This document shows positions 125 to 10,976 of a stretch of 10,976 nucleotides of DNA, one piece after another; position 1 is the first letter of the stretch, and every line of letters starts with the position of its first letter. The translations under genes and the position numbers were made by a program. The notes under the pieces were generated by a model. That model worked only from the letters and a program-made list of their open reading frames with translations. It had not been told where the DNA came from and did not search any database. The DNA comes from a virus. The stretch lies in the UHGV virus genome UHGV-0119342, one strand, 5' to 3'.

Positions 125-1528
125 ATGAAACGTGTAATCAGCTACATCAGATTCAGTTCTGAGCGACAAGCCAAAGGCGACTCACTACGCAGACAGTCTA
201 AGATGGTTAATGACTGGCTTAAGGCTCATCCTGAGTACTACCTTGACCAAGATTTATCCTTCCGTGATTTGGGGGTGAGTGGGTTCACTGGTAAGCACTT
301 GAAAGGTGGCTTAGGTGACTTTTTAACCGCTATCGAGAAAGGGCTTGTTAAAGCTGGTGATACGCTCTTGATAGAATCTCTTGACCGTCTGTCACGTCAA
401 GATGTAGACCAAGCAAGTGAGCTACTCAGAAACATTCTTCGCTCTGGTGTAGATGTGGTCACCTTGTCCGATGGTGAACATTACACACGAGAATCTCTTA
501 AAGACCCGTTAGCTCTGATTAAAAGCATTTTGATAATGCAGCGGTCGCATGAGGAAAGTTTGAGGAAGTCTGAGCGTATACAAGCTGCATGGGATGCAAA
601 GAAAGAAGCTGCTAAAGCCGGTATCAAGATTTCTAGGCGTTGTCCTGCATGGCTTAAGCTTAATGATGACCGTAAAAGCTTCTCTGTGATACCTGAGAAG
701 GTAGAAACTGTGAGGAGATGCTTTCAATTACGGTTAGAGGGTAAGTCTATCTGGGAGATTGTCCGGATTCTTAATGATGAAGGTCACCAGACACTTAACC
801 AGTACAAAGCAGGTAAGTTTGGTCAAACCTCAGTGCAAGACCTTCTGAAAAATCGCTCTGTAATTGGTTACTTCACACCTAAAGGCTGTGAGGAGATAGT
901 TGGTTATTTCCCCCCTATCATCCCTGAGACTGATTTCTACAAAGTCCAGCAACTATCATATTCTCGTTATGGAAGAAAGCCTGCTTCAGATAAACCATTG
1001 AGTGTGAATCTTTTCAAAGGTGTTATCCGTTGTTCTGAATGTGGTCATGCTCTGATTATCACAGGCTTTAGCGATACAAGAAGCGGTATATATCGCTGTC
1101 CTTCTCGAAATGAAAACCGTTGCAATGCCAAAGGGCTGTCACGTAAGCAAACCGATGGTACATTACTTGCCCTGCTATCCCGTATAGACCGATTTGATAG
1201 CGATATGACGAATACCATAGACACACTGAAGCTACACCGTGAACACATCTCAAGCAATATTGAAAAGCTGGTACAGCTATCACTTGAAATTGAAGACTTG
1301 TCCGCTATTACCAGCAAACTAAAACAGTTAAAAGGTGAGCTATCACAGGTTGATGCGGATATCGAGAAGGAGACACAACGCCTTAAATCTATTGATGTGG
1401 GGTGTTTGTCTGATTGTGACTTGACTACAAAGGCGGGAAGGATTGAAGCACAACTGATAATCAAAAGTGCTGTTAAAGAGGTCGTTTTGAATACTGCTAA
1501 ACGTCGATGTAACTTTTCACAACGGTAA
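125..1528 (+). CDS. Large serine recombinase (integrase/resolvase family)
   Basis: 467-aa ORF. N-terminal resolvase-type catalytic region (YIRFSSERQ with candidate catalytic Ser; LIESLDRLSRQ), Cys-rich zinc-ribbon-like segment (CSECGH...YRCPSRNENRC), C-terminal coiled-coil-like stretch. GGTGG about 8 nt upstream of ATG. Confidence 0.85.
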   Translation: MKRVISYIRFSSERQAKGDSLRRQSKMVNDWLKAHPEYYLDQDLSFRDLGVSGFTGKHLKGGLGDFLTAIEKGLVKAGDTLLIESLDRLSRQDVDQASELLRNILRSGVDVVTLSDGEHYTRESLKDPLALIKSILIMQRSHEESLRKSERIQAAWDAKKEAAKAGIKISRRCPAWLKLNDDRKSFSVIPEKVETVRRCFQLRLEGKSIWEIVRILNDEGHQTLNQYKAGKFGQTSVQDLLKNRSVIGYFTPKGCEEIVGYFPPIIPETDFYKVQQLSYSRYGRKPASDKPLSVNLFKGVIRCSECGHALIITGFSDTRSGIYRCPSRNENRCNAKGLSRKQTDGTLLALLSRIDRFDSDMTNTIDTLKLHREHISSNIEKLVQLSLEIEDLSAITSKLKQLKGELSQVDADIEKETQRLKSIDVGCLSDCDLTTKAGRIEAQLIIKSAVKEVVLNTAKRRCNFSQR

Positions 1529-1657: not shown

Positions 1658-2422
1658 TCAGTAGCGCTTGTTAGGATTCACAGAAAACTTCCGTAAAGCA
1701 TTACCCGACTTAAGCACCTTTGAAGCTTGCTCATTAGCTGAGGCTGTGAAGGTGCTCTCACCATTTTTAACGCTAACGCTCTTAGAGCACGTTACACGGG
1801 CTTTTAGCGCTTCATCTGATAACTCACTTGCCGAATAGCTAAAAAGCTCTTTACAGGTCAGCATAGGGCTTCCAAGGCTCGTTGTAGTGTTGCCAGTGTT
1901 CTTTTTACTGGTAGAACCGCCATCATTCGTGGTAGCGACCTTTCCAGTAGCTGCTGAAACATCAGTTTGCCCTACGATTGAACGAAATTCTACACCTTGG
2001 AAGGTCATCTGAATACGAAGACCATTAGCAATGGTATGCTCTTTACTCGCTTTAAACTGAGTAATGATACTATCAGTGATAGATATTCCATCTTTACAAA
2101 CAATAGTGATGATTTGCTTCTGGTCTCGCCATTGTTCAACCGTAGAAATAAAGGTCTCTACAAGTTGCCCCTGTCTGGTTAATAGAACTGAACCCGTCGA
2201 ATCAACCACTACAACACCGCTAATAGAGATGGTCTTAGGTGCTCTCTGAACATTATCAGTGATAGTTTGCCCCGATTGCATAGCCTGAGTTGTCACCATC
2301 ATCGGTGAGTCATAGTCCATCTGTTCAGTAGCTGTTAAGGCAAGAAAAGATTCTACATTATCTCTAAGGTGAAAATAGATACCATCTTTACCTGAGTATC
2401 TAATTTGCTTTGTGTCAAACAT
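1658..2422 (-). CDS. Hypothetical protein, possibly tail-associated (immediately downstream of the tape measure gene)
   Basis: 254-aa ORF, AGGA 9 nt upstream of ATG, Ser/Thr/Gly-rich C-terminal half. Functional guess from position only. Confidence 0.6.
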
Positions 2423-2595: not shown

Positions 2596-4662
2596 TTATT
2601 CCTCTGGGTAAGCGGAGCTAATCAAGGTATCTTCCTGCATACGATTAATATGCGATGTGGTTCTTTCATCAATAACCTTTCCATCAAGTACCGTCTGAGT
2701 TGTGATATTGATTGTCTGAGGCTGAATATTTACTGACGGCTTGATAACCTTTAAATCTTGTGTGAATGTTTCCACTCGACCTTTCAGATTATTTAATGCT
2801 TCAGGTGAAAACTGTGGAACATCTTTTGATTTGCCATGAACCATAGCCCATAAAACAGCAGCTAAAGAGTTCATGTCACCAGTCAATGCTTGGTCTGTGG
2901 GTTCCACCTTTGACCTTACAACTTTGTCAATTGGATTATCTGACTTACTCATCTGACGTTCATAGAACGGTTTAACAATGGAGTTAATCACATCAGTTGC
3001 CATACCGACAATCATTACTTTGGTAATTGCATCAGCTACAGATAATTTTCCTTTACCACCTTCAACACTACCGGAACGTGAATTAATTCTTCCCGCTGCT
3101 GTATTTGCTACATTTCCAAGCATGGAAATAGCCCTAATTAAGTTCCAGATACCACCTACAGCACCAATACCAGACCTTACAGCGACAATACCAGCAAGTC
3201 CCTTTAATGCACTTAACAGGCCATTTGCGATACCATCAGCTACAGCTTTTTGAGTGTCATTTAATTCTCTGTAAGCAAGGGTCACTCTGTCAAAGAATCC
3301 CTGCACTCGGTAGCTAATCGTGGTTAAATCATCAATACCGTTTGACATGCTTTTCATCAGGTCGCCAAAATGTTCACCAAGATTTTTAGATTGACCACCT
3401 AGTGAATTAAGTAAATTAGTCAGTGACCTTGTAAAGTCTGTTAAACCTTCCTGTGAACCGTCGAACATTAAGGCCAGATTATTATTCCATGAATTAGAAA
3501 GGCGGCCTAACTGCGTCTGAGTAGAGTTAATAATCTTTTCCCATCCACCAGCTTTATCAATCATCCTTCCCATTTCAGCGGATACTTTAGGAAGAACATC
3601 TTTAGAAAGAACTTTACCGTTCTTCATAGCTGCATCTAATTGCTCGGTAGTCATCCCAAGGCTTCTGGCAAATAACTGGAAAGCACCTGCCATTCTGTCA
3701 CCTAATTGACCACGTAGCTCTTCAGCCTGAATCTTCCCTTTAGAAGCCATCTGCTCGAAAGCTTTCAGAATCCCGTTAATTTCATCAGTGCTTAAACCCA
3801 TTAGTCGGGATGTACCAATCACATTAGAAAATAAGGATTCTTTCTGGTCTGCATTCATATCACCAGCACCAGCGGAAAACTTAGCAAAGCTACTTAATGT
3901 TTCAATCTGGTCTACACCTGTATTATTAGCAAGATTCTTAACGAAGTCTGTAGCTCGTTTAGCGCCTTCATCGCCTAATACAAATTGTGCCGCTCGTTGT
4001 GATGCTTCTTTTTTCAGACCAATCTCCATAATCTTCCTATAAGCTTCTAAGGCTGTCTGAAAACTATAAATGGCTGTACCTGCTTTGATTGCACTTGTAG
4101 CTAATACATCTAAACCATTTGAAGCATTTTCACTGTGATTGTTTTTGCTGGTGGTCTTATTAAACTTAGAAAGTGTTTCACGTAGATTTTGATTTAACTT
4201 TGCTAACTCACGATTAAAAGCTTCGTTCCCAAGTGTCTTGGATTTACCGCTTAAGCTGTAATACTGGCTTCTAAAATACTTCTCAAGTAGAGGATTAAAG
4301 TCACGAAGCTTGCTCATATTCACGCTATGCGCTGCTGTGATTGCTCTGTTGCCGCTAATTCGTGGTTGCCTTGCTGCTTTAACAGTTTCTTCAACCTGAG
4401 TTTTGAACTTAAAGACCTTCGTAGATTTGGCTCTTTCCTCCAGCTTATTAAAAGTCTGGTTAATCTTCTTTTCCATATTCCCCAAAGAGGCTGTTAAATC
4501 CTTATCCATGCTCTTTGGGTTAACTTTAAATGCTCTATTCAAATTGCGTTCAATTCTTTGTGCTGACTGCAAAGCTGCCTTTTCAACTCTTTGCAGTCCC
4601 TTAATAACGTTTTCATTGAAGCCTAGCTCAACGATAAAACTATCAACTGTGAATTTGCTCAT
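2596..4662 (-). CDS. Phage tail tape measure protein
   Basis: 688-aa ORF. Coiled-coil-like N-terminal region, central segment resembling the conserved tape-measure domain (GKIQAEELRGQLGDRMAGAFQLFARSLGMTTEQLDAAMKNGKV), Gly-rich hydrophobic segments near the C-terminus. AGAGGTG 10 nt upstream of ATG. Confidence 0.8.
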   Translation of the reverse strand: MSKFTVDSFIVELGFNENVIKGLQRVEKAALQSAQRIERNLNRAFKVNPKSMDKDLTASLGNMEKKINQTFNKLEERAKSTKVFKFKTQVEETVKAARQPRISGNRAITAAHSVNMSKLRDFNPLLEKYFRSQYYSLSGKSKTLGNEAFNRELAKLNQNLRETLSKFNKTTSKNNHSENASNGLDVLATSAIKAGTAIYSFQTALEAYRKIMEIGLKKEASQRAAQFVLGDEGAKRATDFVKNLANNTGVDQIETLSSFAKFSAGAGDMNADQKESLFSNVIGTSRLMGLSTDEINGILKAFEQMASKGKIQAEELRGQLGDRMAGAFQLFARSLGMTTEQLDAAMKNGKVLSKDVLPKVSAEMGRMIDKAGGWEKIINSTQTQLGRLSNSWNNNLALMFDGSQEGLTDFTRSLTNLLNSLGGQSKNLGEHFGDLMKSMSNGIDDLTTISYRVQGFFDRVTLAYRELNDTQKAVADGIANGLLSALKGLAGIVAVRSGIGAVGGIWNLIRAISMLGNVANTAAGRINSRSGSVEGGKGKLSVADAITKVMIVGMATDVINSIVKPFYERQMSKSDNPIDKVVRSKVEPTDQALTGDMNSLAAVLWAMVHGKSKDVPQFSPEALNNLKGRVETFTQDLKVIKPSVNIQPQTINITTQTVLDGKVIDERTTSHINRMQEDTLISSAYPEE

Positions 4663-5110: not shown

Positions 5111-5815
5111 TCAAACAGCCTTGCTAAATTCTCGTGGAACACTCAGAAAATCATTGAAGCTGATAATCTGTGCCAACTCTTGACGGTACTCCTTAGCCAG
5201 CGCTTGATGGTCACTAATCAGCTTAGCCAGTCTTGATTTCAGCAAATTAATCTCATTTTCTCTTGCTTTCATCAGTTTCTCTTTGGCAATTTCTTCAAGC
5301 TCAGCTTGTGATTTATCAGCAACAATTAGAGACAATCGATGTGGTGCTCTGACAGCTCTTTCCGTACGAATAACCCTTTGACCTTCTGGTAAATCTGCAA
5401 TCACTTTACCAATCTCTACAGGGTCATACCCCCAACCGTCACGGTCTAGTCGAGAGAAATAAGCATAAGAATTGGTTTGAAGCTCCATTAAAATAGCCAT
5501 TTCGTCAATTTCGTCTTCAAGCTTGGACTGAATTTTCTCGTAAACACTTCTCATTGCTTCTTGAGAGTCTTTAATAGCTTGGAAATATCGGCGTTGTAGC
5601 TTCAACTTCAAATCAAGTTCACAACTTTCGTTCATAGAAAAATCAATTTCAACTCTTGGAATCTCGAGTGGTTCTGGTGGAATATATGGACCTTTATTTA
5701 CTTCGTGTGATTCCCGCCAAGCTCTATCAAAAGATTCACGCAAAGTTAATTCGTGAATATCAAGTGCACTTGGTCGGCTTTCAATAATCATTTCATTTTC
5801 ATCACGGATAGCCAT
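5111..5815 (-). CDS. Hypothetical acidic protein with coiled-coil-like C-terminal half
   Basis: 234-aa ORF, AGAGGAAAGG 5 nt upstream of ATG; heptad-like helical C-terminal region. No recognisable catalytic motif. Confidence 0.65.
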   Translation of the reverse strand: MAIRDENEMIIESRPSALDIHELTLRESFDRAWRESHEVNKGPYIPPEPLEIPRVEIDFSMNESCELDLKLKLQRRYFQAIKDSQEAMRSVYEKIQSKLEDEIDEMAILMELQTNSYAYFSRLDRDGWGYDPVEIGKVIADLPEGQRVIRTERAVRAPHRLSLIVADKSQAELEEIAKEKLMKARENEINLLKSRLAKLISDHQALAKEYRQELAQIISFNDFLSVPREFSKAV

Positions 5816-6020
5816 TAATACCTTTCCTCTTCTAAGATAATTTATGTTTCAGTTTTTAAAAAGCACACCTGACATCCTCGAACTTAGAAGAGGCTTAAAA
5901 GGCGTTTGCCAAGTATGCTTTTTAAAAGCTGAAAAGGCCCTAGATAACTAAAACGCTATAAAGGGCTAAGGTGAAGAAATTAAAACATCTAAAGGATTCA
6001 ATAACGAATGAACAAGAGTA

Positions 6021-6069
6021 CTTTTCGAGATGACCTCTCAGGTTATATAAGAGGTCATGTAGCGAAAAG
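6021..6069. repeat. Nested palindrome in the leader upstream of the 234-aa gene
   Basis: Inner perfect 9-bp inverted repeat atgacctct / agaggtcat (6030-6038 / 6050-6058) with 11-nt spacer, flanked by outer arms cttttcg (6021-6027) / cgaaaag (6063-6069). No U-tract on either strand. Confidence 0.45.
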
Positions 6070-6155
6070 CATTGCACCTTTCCAAATCAGAATATCCATC
6101 CATCGGATTATTGAAAATATGATTTTAGGAAGAGTTGCTCTTCCCTATAATTAAA

Positions 6156-6184
6156 ATTATGTCATACTTAAGGTTATTTGTCAA
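6156..6184 (-). promoter_or_regulatory. Candidate sigma70-type promoter (minus strand) for the 234-aa / 71-aa genes
   Basis: Minus-strand -35 TTGACA (6179-6184), 17-bp spacer, -10 CATAAT (6156-6161); implies a leader of about 330 nt. Confidence 0.4.
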
Positions 6185-6462
6185 CAGCCTTTTAACAGAT
6201 TGGTAACATCAATTTCTATTTACTGTGTTGCCTACCCAGCAACCAACAAATAAGCCAAGCAACGTCCAAGCAATTATTAAGCCCATTAGTGAACCCTCAC
6301 AGAATCCGTAACCAAAATATTGTCGCCGTACAGGATTGTCACAGCACCTTTCAAAAATTGCTCTGGGGAAATACTGTATTTGTTCGTTTGCTCGATAACC
6401 AATCTTTTCATGTCGCTGTCTGCAATTGGTAGCATCATTCGAGGCTCGTTAAACTCCACCGA

Positions 6463-6609
6463 CTAAATAAAGTCAGAGATGTTTTCTGCATTATCAGCCA
6501 TCAGCTTTAGTAATTTATCAAAATTAATTGCGATACCTGCATCACTGAAAGCCTGAATCATCAGAGCGGTGTCGTTATCAACGAAAATCTGTAATTCGTA
6601 ATTGCTCAT
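6463..6609 (-). CDS. Small acidic hypothetical protein (48 aa, not in the supplied ORF track)
   Basis: Hand translation MSNYELQIFVDNDTALMIQAFSDAGIAINFDKLLKLMADNAENISDFI; AAGGAG 9 nt upstream of ATG. Confidence 0.4.
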   Translation of the reverse strand: MSNYELQIFVDNDTALMIQAFSDAGIAINFDKLLKLMADNAENISDFI

Positions 6610-6764
6610 TTTTAAAATCTCCTTTTTACCAGACCTCCTCAATCGCTCTGTAACGAGCTAAACAGTCTTTTTCAGGGGTAGCCTGTACAGTGGTATTACC
6701 CACCCTAAAATAAGATAGTTTTTTGCGTTAGAATGCGATTGAGAGCGTCTGAGAAGCTGTTTTT

Positions 6765-7052
6765 CTAATTTCTCTTAAAGTCTCGGACTTGCATAAGATT
6801 TTTTGGTCTGGTATCGGCTCTGTTACCATTTCGATGGATAATTTGCTTATTGGATTGATAGCCATGATAAAGGAACCAGACAACATATTTCACGTAGAAA
6901 GTATATCGGCCTATATTAAATGTTTTGTTGCCGTAGTCGTCGGTATTTATCGTGACTGACTCTCCATCAGACCAGCACAGGGAATCACTGGATTCATCAT
7001 AGATAAGGTGTTCTGTAAAATATCGTCTAACATCTTCATGCCAAGGTTTCAT
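6765..7052 (-). CDS. Truncated HNH-like protein, paralogue of the N-terminal part of the 9540-10064 endonuclease
   Basis: 95-aa ORF, GAGGAGG 4 nt upstream of ATG. Shares KPWHEDVRRY with KAWPEEVIRY and VVWFLYHG...IIHRNGNRADTRPKNL with VIFYLYHG...IDHIDGDPLNNAISNL, but ends before the final HNH Asn and has no AP2 domain. Confidence 0.65.
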   Translation of the reverse strand: MKPWHEDVRRYFTEHLIYDESSDSLCWSDGESVTINTDDYGNKTFNIGRYTFYVKYVVWFLYHGYQSNKQIIHRNGNRADTRPKNLMQVRDFKRN

Positions 7053-7264
7053 AAAACCTCCTCACCCCAATAACCTAATTCAATCTTGTGACGCTCAAAC
7101 CATTCTGGCTTGACTGCTGCTTTCAGTACTTCATTTGGGCCAATGGCTTTAATGAAAATATCTTTTGAGTTATGGATGTCACCGAATCCGTTTCCTTTAA
7201 TCAGGAGGTCGGAGATGTAGCGAATCATTTTATCTGTGTGGTATTCAAAGGTAACGCATAGCAT
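7049..7264 (-). CDS. Hypothetical protein
   Basis: 71-aa ORF, GGAGG 4 nt upstream of ATG; start overlaps the stop of the upstream gene by 1 nt, and its stop overlaps the start of the 95-aa gene by 4 nt. Confidence 0.55.
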   Translation of the reverse strand: MLCVTFEYHTDKMIRYISDLLIKGNGFGDIHNSKDIFIKAIGPNEVLKAAVKPEWFERHKIELGYWGEEVL

Positions 7265-7542
7265 TAAACCTCCAGAGACAGCTTGTGAATTTTAAGACTC
7301 AATAGACGGGCAATATCAATCTTAAAGCCGTTAAGCGCCTTCAAAGTAGCTAAAGCGTCCTGACTAATTCGGATGTGTTTACGACCTTTAGAGACTGGAT
7401 ATTTCAGTAAATCCGACTCAGTAACCTCTTTAGCAATTGCAAGCTGCATAACAGTTTGATGAGGGAGGTTAGTTGTCTGTTTAATTCGGGTAAGCTCGTG
7501 AAAGGCTTCTTCTGAAATACGGGTCAAAGTGTGTTTCTTCAT
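7264..7542 (-). CDS. Ribbon-helix-helix (CopG/Arc-like) DNA-binding protein, putative regulator
   Basis: 92-aa ORF, AGAGGA 8 nt upstream of ATG. N-terminus MKKHTLTRISEEAFHELTRIKQTTNLPHQTVMQLAIAKEV fits the RHH strand-helix-helix pattern; a second similar segment (HIRISQDALATLKAL...) may be a tandem repeat. Confidence 0.55.
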   Translation of the reverse strand: MKKHTLTRISEEAFHELTRIKQTTNLPHQTVMQLAIAKEVTESDLLKYPVSKGRKHIRISQDALATLKALNGFKIDIARLLSLKIHKLSLEV

Positions 7543-8100: not shown

Positions 8101-8151
8101 TCATGTTCTGACCCTCATAAGATGTTATTATTCTGTTAACTTATATATACA

Positions 8152-8180
8152 ATCTTAGCAGTTTCAAAGACTAATGTCAA
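8152..8180 (-). promoter_or_regulatory. Candidate sigma70-type promoter for the leftward operon
   Basis: Minus-strand -35 TTGACA (8175-8180), 17-bp spacer, -10 TAAGAT (8152-8157); back-to-back with the plus-strand promoter. Confidence 0.3.
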
Positions 8181-8187
8181 GCATTTT

Positions 8188-8217
8188 TTAACATTTCATT
8201 AACATCTGTGGTATAAT
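8188..8217 (+). promoter_or_regulatory. Candidate strong sigma70-type promoter with extended -10
   Basis: -35 TTAACA (8188-8193), 18-bp spacer, TGg + TATAAT (8209-8217); points toward the small ORF at 8348. Confidence 0.5.
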
Positions 8218-8347
8218 GGTTTTATGAGAGAGGGAAAATATAAAGGCGTGGCTATGAGGTTTATTCGATAGGGGTTGGTACAAGCCCAACTAACCGAATC
8301 AACTATGTATTTGGTCACATGGTATTGCATTGCACACAGGAAATTTA

Positions 8348-8524
8348 ATGGTAAATCTCCCTCCTGAGCTGGGGTCACCTGATGTATGGGCTGGTGGAGG
8401 TGTTGGGCTGATTGCAGGCCTGCTACTTCGCTATGTCCTCGTCAGAGTGCTTGTTGTCTTTAAACTGTTCGGTCGTACATGGACGCTTGACCTTAAGGAT
8501 AATGACCACACAGACCCCCGTTAA
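8348..8524 (+). CDS. Small single-pass membrane protein (58 aa from the ATG; the ORF track begins at a TTG at 8330)
   Basis: AGGA 6 nt upstream of the ATG at 8348; hydrophobic segment WAGGGVGLIAGLLLRYVLVRVLVV; locally GC-richer than its surroundings. Confidence 0.45.
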   Translation: MVNLPPELGSPDVWAGGGVGLIAGLLLRYVLVRVLVVFKLFGRTWTLDLKDNDHTDPR

Positions 8525-8538
8525 ACTCCCTCCAAAAC

Positions 8539-8570
8539 CCCCTGTACGAGATAGTATAGGGGTGTCTTTA
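8539..8570 (+). terminator. Candidate terminator after the small membrane-protein ORF
   Basis: Imperfect 8-bp stem cccctgta / tatagggg (one mismatch), 8-nt loop, followed by tgtcttta. Confidence 0.3.
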
Positions 8571-9453
8571 GCATTTTGTGCTATCTATTAAAAAATAGCT
8601 TGACAGAACAGGAAAGCTGTATCTATCAAGTATTCACCTCTCTGACAGTAATTTCTAAAAGTTCTTATTTTTCAATAAGTTGTAATTAGCCAATATATAA
8701 GGCTGTCCAGTACCTTCACAGAAAAACTTCAGAAGCCTTCTTAATCAATCCACTAAGCGAGAGAGAGCGATAACCCCAGAGAGGGAAGCTCCCTTCTTAA
8801 AAACCTTCTTGACAATCTTTACAGGCCTTGTTCAAGGTAATCGCAATAGTTTTTCTTCCCTCGGTTTCCCGTGTTCCTCGGTTTGCCTATTGAGGTTTGA
8901 AAGACCTCTGTAACTTCCCTCTTAGACAGGGAAGAATAATATTGGTGACACAAGCGAAGCGCCCCTCTAAAAAGATTTTTTAGCTATTTTGTTTAAAAGC
9001 ACATCAAACGATACATTTTATTGATTTAGGTCAAAGACAAAAGCATTGACAAAATGGTAAGATTGTTCACATGACCTTACTTAACAGATTCTTAAGAGCT
9101 TTGAAGCGGCCTATTTAACAAGGTCACTACCTCTGGTCTTATCGTTCCCTCTCTTCTTGGTAGTTCTGTTAAGTATCTTTTCAGGTATCTCTTACAGTCA
9201 CTGTTAAGATGATACTCTCCCTTCGGGTTATATCGTTACTTTCTCTCCCGTTAAACACTCCTTCCTAACTATCTACATAATCACTTCTAAGAATCTTACA
9301 AGGTAATATCCAGACCTCTTATAGCTGACCTGATACAGAAACATTACAGGCATACTCTCTAGGTTCTGTGTAGTTCCCTTGGTGGGAATAGATGCTCCTA
9401 CAATAAGAGCATCATTAATCTATATAGTCCTCTTCCGAGAACTTAATAGTTTT

Positions 9454-9481
9454 TTGATGTACATCAATCATTATCTAAAAT
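9454..9481 (+). promoter_or_regulatory. Candidate promoter for the HNH endonuclease gene
   Basis: -35 TTGATG (9454-9459), 16-bp spacer, -10 TAAAAT (9476-9481). Confidence 0.3.
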
Positions 9482-9539
9482 ATGATATGAAGTTTCTTGG
9501 TAGTATTACATCAACAAGTTAATTGAAATAAGGAATATT

Positions 9540-10064
9540 ATGGTGACTAGGTATACCAAGGCATGGCCTGAAGAAGTTATAAGATACATCAATGAAAATA
9601 TTACAGCAGATTTTGAATCTGGAACATTATTTAGAAATGGTGTAAAAATCGAGGGTTCACTTGTAAATCCTAAACCAAGACAATATCTGGCTTTTGGTTG
9701 TCGGATTAATGGTAAGTTCAGAATACTTAAGGTGCATCAGGTTATTTTCTATCTATATCATGGTAAACAAGCTAAACTATGGATTGACCATATAGATGGT
9801 GACCCGCTAAATAATGCTATTAGCAATCTTCGCGAGGTTACCAAAGAGCAGAATCAGGCAAACATGATACCCAGAAAGAAAACAAAATCAGGTTACAAGG
9901 GAGTACACCCAAGAGTGGATAACAAGGGGTTCTGGGCTACAATACGCTGTAATGGAAAATCTCATTATCTGGGTCAGTTTAATACAGCAGAAGAAGCTGC
10001 AAAAGCCTATGATGCTGCATCACTGGAATTGCATGGTAAATATGGACACAGGAATTTTAGCTGA
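9540..10064 (+). CDS. Free-standing homing endonuclease, NUMOD4-like N-terminus + HNH nuclease + AP2 DNA-binding domain
   Basis: 174-aa ORF, AAGGA 5 nt upstream of ATG. HNH motif VHQVIFYLYHG...IDHIDGDPLNNAISNLREVTKEQNQAN; AP2-like C-terminus YKGVHPRVDNKGFWATIRCNGKSHYLGQFNTAEEAAKAYDAAS. Confidence 0.85.
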   Translation: MVTRYTKAWPEEVIRYINENITADFESGTLFRNGVKIEGSLVNPKPRQYLAFGCRINGKFRILKVHQVIFYLYHGKQAKLWIDHIDGDPLNNAISNLREVTKEQNQANMIPRKKTKSGYKGVHPRVDNKGFWATIRCNGKSHYLGQFNTAEEAAKAYDAASLELHGKYGHRNFS

Positions 10065-10074
10065 TAGTTAATAA

Positions 10075-10104
10075 AGACCTGACATAAACTTGTCGATAGG
10101 TCTG
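10075..10104 (+). terminator. Candidate stem-loop downstream of the HNH endonuclease gene
   Basis: agacctgaca ... tgtcgataggtct: 10 paired positions with a 3-nt bulge, AT-rich tail (gattaaagtttat); weak as an intrinsic terminator. Confidence 0.3.
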
Positions 10105-10896
10105 ATTAAAGTTTATACAGTGATTTTTCATCTTCTAATTTTTTTATAAAAATCGTAGTACCCCCTCTACATTCCCCTTCACCGATAATCTTAAAAAATA
10201 TCTACACTCAATTGATGGCTGTTAAGTACCCCAGATTCACGATATAGCACCCCCTTTGCAAAAGCAGTTAAAATATCTATAACCAATTATTGACTTTCTT
10301 CATAGCATCTGTTTACCTCCACCTCAAAAAAACCTTCATCACATTTCACAGCATCTATCAAGAAGATTTAACCTATCAATAGCTGTAACATTTTATAGTC
10401 CTGTGAAGTCCTCCCCAGTTTTCTCTGTAACAGACACAAACTTCTGTGACCTTATGTGTCAATGACTTATAAGACATGCTCTCAAGGTGCTGTATAGCCT
10501 CTTATCTTCCAATACATAAAACTCTTATAAATCAGTACTGATATGTATACAGTTCGTTTTTAACATAATAGCTGTTTTACGCACTAAGAAGCATCTACGT
10601 AGATTCTGTATAGAGATTAAGATGTCTCTAAGTGATTTTTTAAGAGGAGATACGAAGGAACTATAACCATCACTTCATAACTTTCACGTAGGTAGCTATT
10701 AAGTAGGTTGATAGTCACTTTGAGGGAATATTGATAGTGACCAACTGCATAGACACCGTTATATAGCCCTGTATATAGCACTATATGTAGTGTCTGGAGA
10801 GGAACGACTAACACGATACAGTTTACCCTGAAAAGAGACTTCACAGATTCTCTATATATTTCAATAAGTTATGATAAAAAGAGACTATATCAATAC

Positions 10897-10955
10897 TGCA
10901 TAGAATCTGTGTAGGATTGCATAGATACTTGGAAAAATGCCTTTAAATTGCATAG
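10897..10955. repeat. Helically phased TGyrTAG repeats (iteron-like or operator-array-like)
   Basis: TGCATAG at 10897, TGTGTAG at 10908, TGCATAG at 10918 and TGCATAG at 10949; spacings 11, 10 and 31 bp. The last two copies sit in a longer direct repeat ATTGCATAG(A/G)TAC. Confidence 0.45.
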
Positions 10956-10976
10956 GTACTAACCTGTTTATGTCCT

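Follow-up and report, generated by a model that had tools for sequence, protein, structure and literature searches.

Do the small minus-strand reading frames at positions 6209-6609 of the virus genome UHGV-0119342 represent genes, how many genes are they, and what could their products do? We analysed the whole stretch of 10,976 nt (the window), following up an earlier note that had listed three small ORFs and had suggested that the first of them, a 48-aa acidic frame with a strong ribosome-binding site, encodes an inhibitor of host defence systems. The locus is two genes rather than three: a gene of 107 codons that is interrupted by an amber codon in this strain (AB), followed by a gene of 25 codons (orfC).

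Gene structure and conservation of the locus

All three ORFs are present on the minus strand with the positions and translations given in the earlier note: 6609-6463 (48 aa), 6438-6286 (50 aa, or 57 aa if counted from the GTG at 6459) and 6286-6209 (25 aa). Their size alone is at chance level (24 ORFs of at least 20 aa overlap positions 5800-7100, a stretch of 38-39% GC), so we judged the reality of the small ORFs from relatives and from conservation. The first two ORFs share a frame ((6609-6459) mod 3 = 0), and between them there is nothing but the TAG at 6465-6463 and one Ser codon. The TAG position is CAG in seven out of seven IMG/VR relatives, giving a single 107-aa ORF from the start of the first ORF to the stop of the second; what had been described as two separate ORFs is therefore one frame. 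At the level of gene structure, we have high confidence in the following anatomy of the locus:

6286-6609, minus strand: gene AB, 107 codons and stop, encoding an acidic, predicted tandem RHH protein; a pseudogene or split gene here
6463-6609, minus strand: first ORF, the A half of AB, 48 aa, pI 4.05, predicted RHH repeat 1
6463-6465, minus strand: in-frame amber codon TAG, codon 49 of AB, between the predicted RHH repeats (C-to-T on the coding strand at 6465)
6286-6438, minus strand: second ORF, the B half of AB, predicted RHH repeat 2 and C-terminal tail
6209-6286, minus strand: orfC, 25 codons and stop, encoding a predicted single-pass membrane peptide (MGLIIAWTLLGLFVGCWVGNTVNRN)
6619-6624, minus strand: Shine-Dalgarno (SD) sequence AAGGAG of AB, kept in relatives
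6294-6298, minus strand: SD sequence GAGGG of orfC, inside the last AB codons (spacing 7 nt, -6.1 kcal/mol)

The AAGGAG sequence (6624-6619) is 9 nt ahead of the ATG at 6609 with a duplex energy of -8.7 kcal/mol, in agreement with the strong ribosome-binding site attributed to the first ORF. The second ORF has no SD at functional spacing (the closest GGAG is 14-17 nt upstream); its weak ribosome-binding site, seen in the earlier note as well, is explained by this ORF being the C-terminal half of the 107-aa protein. The third ORF does start on the previous stop as TAATG, as had been described; the view that only the first ORF has good translational signals does not hold for it, since its GAGGG sequence is conserved over 90 alleles (median -8.2 kcal/mol).

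Homologues of the read-through AB protein form 2,982 clusters at 90% identity. The best 120 of these 2,982 clusters are nearly all 107 aa long and all "hypothetical", and they come from E. coli and Shigella; a branch with 41% identity is found in E. albertii, and at the 50%-identity level the family consists of a handful of representatives and fragments. When 1.84 billion representatives were searched exhaustively with a HMMER profile, only 18 matches were obtained, namely the AB family, its fragments and one spurious repeat protein. GenBank phages contain no match to the region or to either half (by DNA or tblastn), AB and its halves have no match in PHROGs, Pfam (E up to 10), PADLOC or PDB sequence and profile searches, and an Rfam search gave nothing relevant.

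Our census of 92 further loci (from IMG/VR, assemblies and 80 metagenome contigs) contains an intact AB ORF (97-111 aa) in 91 of them. The dN/dS ratio of AB is 0.25 and alike in both halves, pS is 0.43-0.49 across AB and orfC, and the ratio in shifted frames is about 1 or higher. The many AB clusters are old, recombining alleles and not the signature of an arms race. The earlier note had stated that the ORFs should be given up if they are lost or broken in relatives, and had proposed to look at synonymous sites; the frames are open in relatives, selection is purifying in frame, and the region is coding, with the 25-aa ORF, rated weakest at the outset, now the best-supported new gene.

We found orfC in all 90 loci with a contig of sufficient reach. 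In 88 of these loci, the orfC start codon and the preceding stop codon overlap (86 as TAATG, which is also the arrangement in this window, and two as ATGA). The peptides fall into three classes, one of 25 aa (MGLIIAWT.LGLFVGCWVGNTVNKN), one of 21 aa (MELVIICFVLIGMIAGASIKV) and one of 22 aa (MTLIILWVLLGIVLSFAISMER), the last being the form kept in E. albertii, whose AB has no more than 41% identity. Common to the three classes are a single predicted hydrophobic helix, the motif G-xxx-[G/S/A] and, near the C-terminal end, a basic residue (K/R), which by the positive-inside rule suggests an orientation with the N-terminus out and the C-terminus in. In this window the glycine zipper is G11xxxG15xxxG19 and GRAVY is +1.04. 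dN/dS of orfC is 0.13 for eight sequences and 0.18 for the 44 unique sequences of the 25-aa class (pS 0.39-0.49), compared with 1.15-2.1 in shifted frames; the antisense frame that shares the wobble positions of orfC is also low (0.195), which is a known and expected artefact. No CDS is annotated at orfC in RefSeq L016 or L017, and the peptide is absent from a collection of 15 billion proteins. Judged by these comparisons, orfC is a real gene missed by annotation, encoding what is predicted to be a single-pass glycine-zipper membrane peptide.

Alternatively, orfC could be untranslated, its conservation reflecting a constraint on DNA or RNA (e.g. as an upstream element of the adjacent promoter). 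That orfC ends 24 nt before the -35 box of this promoter, is absent from annotation and protein databases and has a low ratio in the antisense frame too would all agree with such a constraint. However, pS is high (0.49) while dN/dS is 0.18, the three divergent classes all keep the overlapping ATG, the SD, the hydrophobic helix and a stop at 21-25 codons, and the nucleotide sequence itself is not conserved between the classes; we regard an untranslated orfC as extremely unlikely.

Two observations concern the junction of the two genes. In L023 (9499-9723) and L024 (718-942), a 74-aa ORF (MKVQIDEAIKKFDFEKVF...) is inserted exactly at the AB-orfC junction with TAATG overlaps retained on both flanks, as if the junction were a site of gene-cassette exchange. 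The database protein P0134 comes from a naturally occurring deletion allele that joins AB residues 1-37 in frame to the whole of orfC (…LLELM-GLIIAWTALGLFVGCWVGNTVNKN), indicating that gene callers do use the orfC frame once it is long enough.

Predicted fold and amber allele of AB

Full-length AB has a pI of 4.3 and a net charge of -8. A first AF2 model, based on a shallow alignment, was set aside as too poor (pLDDT 52.6); with the E. albertii branch and protein P0122 added, the model reached moderate confidence (pLDDT 71.5, pTM 0.65). Both models have a strand-helix-helix unit twice (E6-11 H12-23 H30-50, a linker, and E56-62 H65-78 H82-98), followed by a tail (98-107) that is disordered in the models, being conserved yet of low confidence. 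When the models were used in Foldseek searches, the top 8-11 matches were all TraY chains, with weak scores (E 0.02-0.4, TM 0.36-0.55), and in the predicted pseudo-dimer the two strands pair into an antiparallel ribbon, as is typical of TraY-like RHH proteins with both repeats in one chain. No RHH family (Pfam TraY, RHH_1, Arc, DndE and others) was matched at E up to 10 by AB, its halves, P0122 or P0127, the PDB profile search with AB gave no meaningful match, and a comparison of the A half with the B half gave no significant evidence for an internal duplication, so that the halves are not detectably homologous.

AB is best described as a single-chain tandem RHH protein, its membership in this superfamily being assigned by predicted fold only. 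With this model, a single-chain double RHH fold would be given to a large orphan family (the 2,982 clusters at 90% identity). The amber codon is at the end of repeat 1, and M58, which is invariant across the AB family (E. albertii included), is just ahead of strand 2; the 48-aa and 50-aa ORFs thus correspond to the two predicted RHH repeats.

Over window positions 5700-7100, the amber codon is the sole mismatch to NZ_AP022287.1, which has an intact CDS in RefSeq. RefSeq PGAP already annotates AB as a pseudogene ('internal stop'), and the 48-aa frame, which the earlier note took for a stand-alone acidic protein, is the N-terminal fragment of an amber-truncated 107-aa protein. Codon 49 in 91 other loci is CAG (79 loci), CAA (two loci) or a His codon (10 loci), and a metagenome contig (L075) has TAG at the same codon in a haplotype that is only 78% identical in nucleotides. 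The 48-aa product is encoded on 27 contigs, compared with 320 contigs for the otherwise identical intact allele, and the amber-carrying strains differ in their neighbouring prophages. The amber allele is real and inherited. Further broken AB alleles are found in nature (frameshifts, deletions and a fusion of the A half with orfC), which argues that AB is not essential for carrying the island.

The window encodes no tRNA and no suppressor. As translation ends after repeat 1 and repeat 2 has no ribosome-binding site of its own, AB in this strain is most likely null or strongly hypomorphic; the B half would be expressible here only by termination-reinitiation at the ATGs of M58 and M59, presumably with low efficiency. 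orfC could still be made in this amber strain, as it has its own SD and its ATG lies on the AB stop.

The amber codon could instead represent a tolerated gene fission, in which the 48-aa A product and a reinitiated 50-aa B product reassemble as a heterodimeric RHH protein. The stop is exactly between the repeats with the invariant M58 eight codons on, the fragments are sized like canonical RHH monomers, and the same-codon TAG is found in two haplotypes (78% nucleotide identity) and in strains with different neighbouring prophages; moreover, TraY itself is known in both forms, as a dimer of single-repeat chains (R1) and as a fused tandem (F). But B starts without a usable SD, so reinitiation 25 nt downstream would give a low yield, and the allele is rare, both by the contig counts given above and among the 92 other loci (one locus). 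Other, clearly destructive AB alleles exist, consistent with simple decay, and the segment shared around the TAG may stem from one mutation spread by recombination. We consider such a fission unlikely, and keep to a null or strongly hypomorphic AB.

The suggestion that the 48-aa acidic product is a stand-alone inhibitor of host defence can be judged by the same data. In its favour are the acidity of the fragment (pI 4.05), its strong SD and its place in an island that is plausibly part of a phage-host conflict. The 48-aa form, however, is confined to amber alleles (AB is full length in 91 out of 92 other loci and in nearly all the database homologues listed). It has no match to an anti-defence or phage family (by PHROG, Pfam, PADLOC or phage tblastn) or in PDB, selection is purifying rather than diversifying (dN/dS 0.25, with old synonymous divergence), and the predicted fold is RHH and not a known DNA mimic. 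An anti-defence role of this product is very unlikely.

The island around AB and orfC

The window is an integrated serine-recombinase island of ∼12 kb and not a phage genome. It covers most of a ∼11.9-kb island (L016, 1350-13223) with a GC content of ∼39% that is located in chromosomal yecE, between yecD and yecN-cmoA. The 1.4-kb region around the small ORFs (window positions 5700-7100) is found in 458 out of 5,426 complete E. coli genomes (∼8%), and E. albertii has variants of the island at other sites. The genes keep a conserved order: p185, p92 and p71b (in some copies with an HNH gene) are followed by AB, orfC, a promoter and a leader, and then by p234, p71, the tape measure gene, a Dit-like gene and a convergent large serine recombinase gene at the island end. 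The features of the window outside AB and orfC that matter here are:

6156-6184, minus strand: strong sigma-70 promoter, TTGACA-17(TG)-CATAAT with extended TG (11/12 consensus)
5816-6150, minus strand: structured 335-nt leader, from the promoter to the p234 start
2596-4662, minus strand: tape measure gene
1658-2422, minus strand: Dit-like/tube-initiator gene
125-1528, plus strand: large serine recombinase gene

The tape measure and the adjacent tail gene have their homologues in virulent Ounavirinae (Felix O1-like) myoviruses, with 70% amino acid identity between the Dit-like protein and its Ounavirinae homologue and patches of 75-78% nucleotide identity in the tape measure gene. In Bas63, the gene beside the tape measure encodes the tube initiator (PMC12609058). 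The island has acquired only the tape measure and the tube initiator of these phages, behind a consensus promoter and a structured leader; no capsid, terminase or replication genes were recognised in it. Literature searches (by accession, by peptide, by yecE with serine recombinase, and by Felix O1 with satellite) found no description of the island, and the Tai tail-interference system was rejected as a published match because that paper treats other elements. It is plausible that this is a PLE-like satellite or a tail-interference island, apparently undescribed, and it deserves more attention than the small ORFs inside it.

The sigma-70 promoter begins 24 nt past the orfC stop and drives the operon of p234, p71, tape measure and tube initiator. 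The sequence after orfC is TTGACA-N16-18-xAxxAT in 74 out of 90 loci and contains TTGAC in the other 16, and the promoter is conserved in the E. albertii islands. The fold energy of the leader is -102 kcal/mol, compared with -70.5 +/- 5.3 kcal/mol for shuffled sequences (z = -5.9), and the leader may serve the riboregulation of the tail-gene operon. Its 5' hairpin (∼6144-6127) has a stem whose sequence varies among relatives with pairing retained, and an 11-nt segment (5893-5883) is perfectly complementary to the ribosome-binding region of p234 (5836-5826); the leader has no Rfam match and shows large indels between relatives. No promoter was detected directly upstream of AB, so AB and orfC are probably the last two cistrons of the upstream operon.

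The spacer between the upstream HNH gene and AB (6610-6764, minus strand, 155 nt) is near-invariant in six relatives, with AB diverging by up to 33%. It contains a palindrome (CTGTACAG) and a CTGT-N10-ACAG motif, and has no predicted promoter on the coding strand; we considered the motif as a LexA box and dropped it, as the spacing is wrong. There are two HNH endonuclease genes in the window. One (6765-7052, minus strand) is directly upstream of AB and encodes a 95-aa protein that stays at 100% identity in loci where the identity of AB is as low as 67-69%; the gene is missing from L006 and L007, and L004 has only a 40%-identical HNH homologue. This distribution is consistent with a mobile homing-endonuclease gene that was inserted at a recombination boundary. 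The other (9540-10064, plus strand) encodes an HNH-AP2 fusion and is on the strand opposite to the first.

The product of p92 (7264-7542, minus strand) is basic (pI 10), shows by eye two strand-helix-helix repeats and has a sub-threshold match to Pfam DndE (E 0.066); it may be a second, DNA-binding tandem RHH protein of the same operon. A comparison of AB repeat 1 with p92 by hhalign gave an in-register match (E 0.02, probability 2%) that is only weak, so we do not claim paralogy. Two gene-poor stretches (8101-9539 and 10065-10976) contain no annotated gene, and their only ORFs of at least 60 aa are one of 64 aa and one of 75 aa. They contain short repeats (e.g. the 26-nt direct repeats at 10195-10220 and 10270-10295), and may hold origin, packaging or RNA functions.

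Proposed function and comparison with known systems

We propose that intact AB would bind or bend specific DNA and thereby regulate the island, with the adjacent tail-gene promoter or DNA transactions of the island as its most plausible target, and that orfC would be a membrane partner or effector made in fixed proportion with AB. In this strain, the CAG-to-TAG change would stop AB after repeat 1 and leave orfC translatable. For the explanation as a whole (a split AB, orfC, and an island regulator with a membrane partner) we estimate a probability of about 0.55. In place of three speculative ORFs it gives a known pseudogene and a real gene that had been missed, the latter present in every island copy examined yet absent from RefSeq and protein databases; the finding is partly an artefact of an already flagged nonsense mutation and partly a modest real discovery.

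The regulatory part is more tentative than the whole. Almost all characterised RHH proteins are sequence-specific DNA-binding or DNA-bending proteins, and the predicted fold makes it possible, though doubtful, that AB is such a regulator of the island. Three arguments count against DNA binding. AB has a net charge of -8, although there are acidic antitoxins of the RHH type, RelB among them, that do bind DNA. The residues that should point outwards from the ribbon (E5, Q7 and F9 with R57, M59 and P61) are poor DNA readers, and in the eight loci compared the AB alleles do not change together with the sequence of the neighbouring promoter or 5' hairpin. No operator-like repeats were found near AB.

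AB and orfC could also be a toxin-antitoxin-like or abortive-infection pair, in which AB neutralises or represses a membrane-damaging peptide that is freed upon host shutoff by a phage. An acidic, predicted RHH gene placed first, with a stop/start overlap in 88 out of 90 loci, is the order of type II toxin-antitoxin systems, orfC resembles type I toxins in size and hydrophobicity, and the conserved, low-confidence C-terminal tail of AB is antitoxin-like. On the other hand, AB alleles broken by nonsense mutations, frameshifts or deletions are found next to an intact orfC with an SD of its own, which should be lethal if orfC were a constitutive toxin; in addition, there is no PADLOC match, and a separate promoter for the pair was not detected. 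We know of no type II system with a transmembrane toxin of 21-25 aa. We consider such a pair improbable.

Rather less probable still is that AB is not a transcription factor but a TraY-like DNA-architectural protein or a recombination directionality factor, serving the recombinase, packaging or replication. TraY, its best match by structure, bends DNA as an accessory to a DNA-processing machine; for the large serine recombinase of the island no excision factor could be recognised, and AB and the recombinase are together in every island variant seen. But 4.7 kb separate AB from the recombinase gene, neither repeats nor att-like sites were identified around AB, and the argument is one of analogy throughout.

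In a more far-reaching version of our proposal, which we regard as a long shot, a PLE-like satellite or defence island directed against Felix O1-like lytic phages would have AB and orfC as a two-part module of a kind not described before. An RHH sensor or regulator and an effector micropeptide, made at a fixed ratio, would gate a decoy operon of tape measure and tube initiator, and the recurrent amber would be a natural fission to a working heterodimer. If this were true, the orfC effector might, for example, collapse the membrane, alter lysis timing or block genome entry.

Among known systems, F-plasmid TraY is described as monomeric, a single polypeptide taking up the fold of an RHH dimer (PMC12117103). 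AB shares the predicted single-chain tandem RHH pseudo-dimer fold with this relaxosome accessory protein, but the two have only ∼10-15% sequence identity, AB has no match to Pfam TraY, and AB is acidic. TraY comes with a relaxase and oriT on a conjugative element, whereas the island has no relaxase, oriT or conjugation genes. DndE acts in DNA phosphorothioation; the island lacks dndABCD, and AB has no match to Pfam DndE. Arc, CopG, ParD, MazE, TacA and RelB are two-chain proteins, whereas AB fuses two non-identical repeats in one chain; and RHH antitoxins pair with a toxin domain, whereas the downstream partner of AB is a membrane peptide of 21-25 aa.

In gene order, acidity, predicted RHH fold and stop/start overlap, AB-orfC would fit a type II toxin-antitoxin system. 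Such systems differ in having their own promoter, which was not found here, in a toxin of a recognised family (orfC is a 21-25-aa transmembrane peptide with no family), and in not tolerating antitoxin loss, whereas AB-null alleles with intact orfC occur naturally. Phage anti-defence proteins (Ocr/ArdA-like, Acr) are stand-alone and typically fast-evolving, whereas the 48-aa form is a truncation product.

Enterobacteria and their phages encode small single-pass membrane proteins, which include the type I toxins Ibs, TisB and ShoB as well as the regulatory micropeptides KdpF, AcrZ and MgrB. Type I toxins (Hok/Ibs/TisB-like) have their own promoter and leader and an overlapping or adjacent antisense RNA, whereas orfC is coupled to AB in an operon; no antisense promoter is predicted over orfC, and there is no Rfam match. 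The orfC peptide is like these small membrane proteins in its size (21-25 aa), its one predicted helix with a small-xxx-small motif, its basic C-terminal end and its having been missed by annotation.
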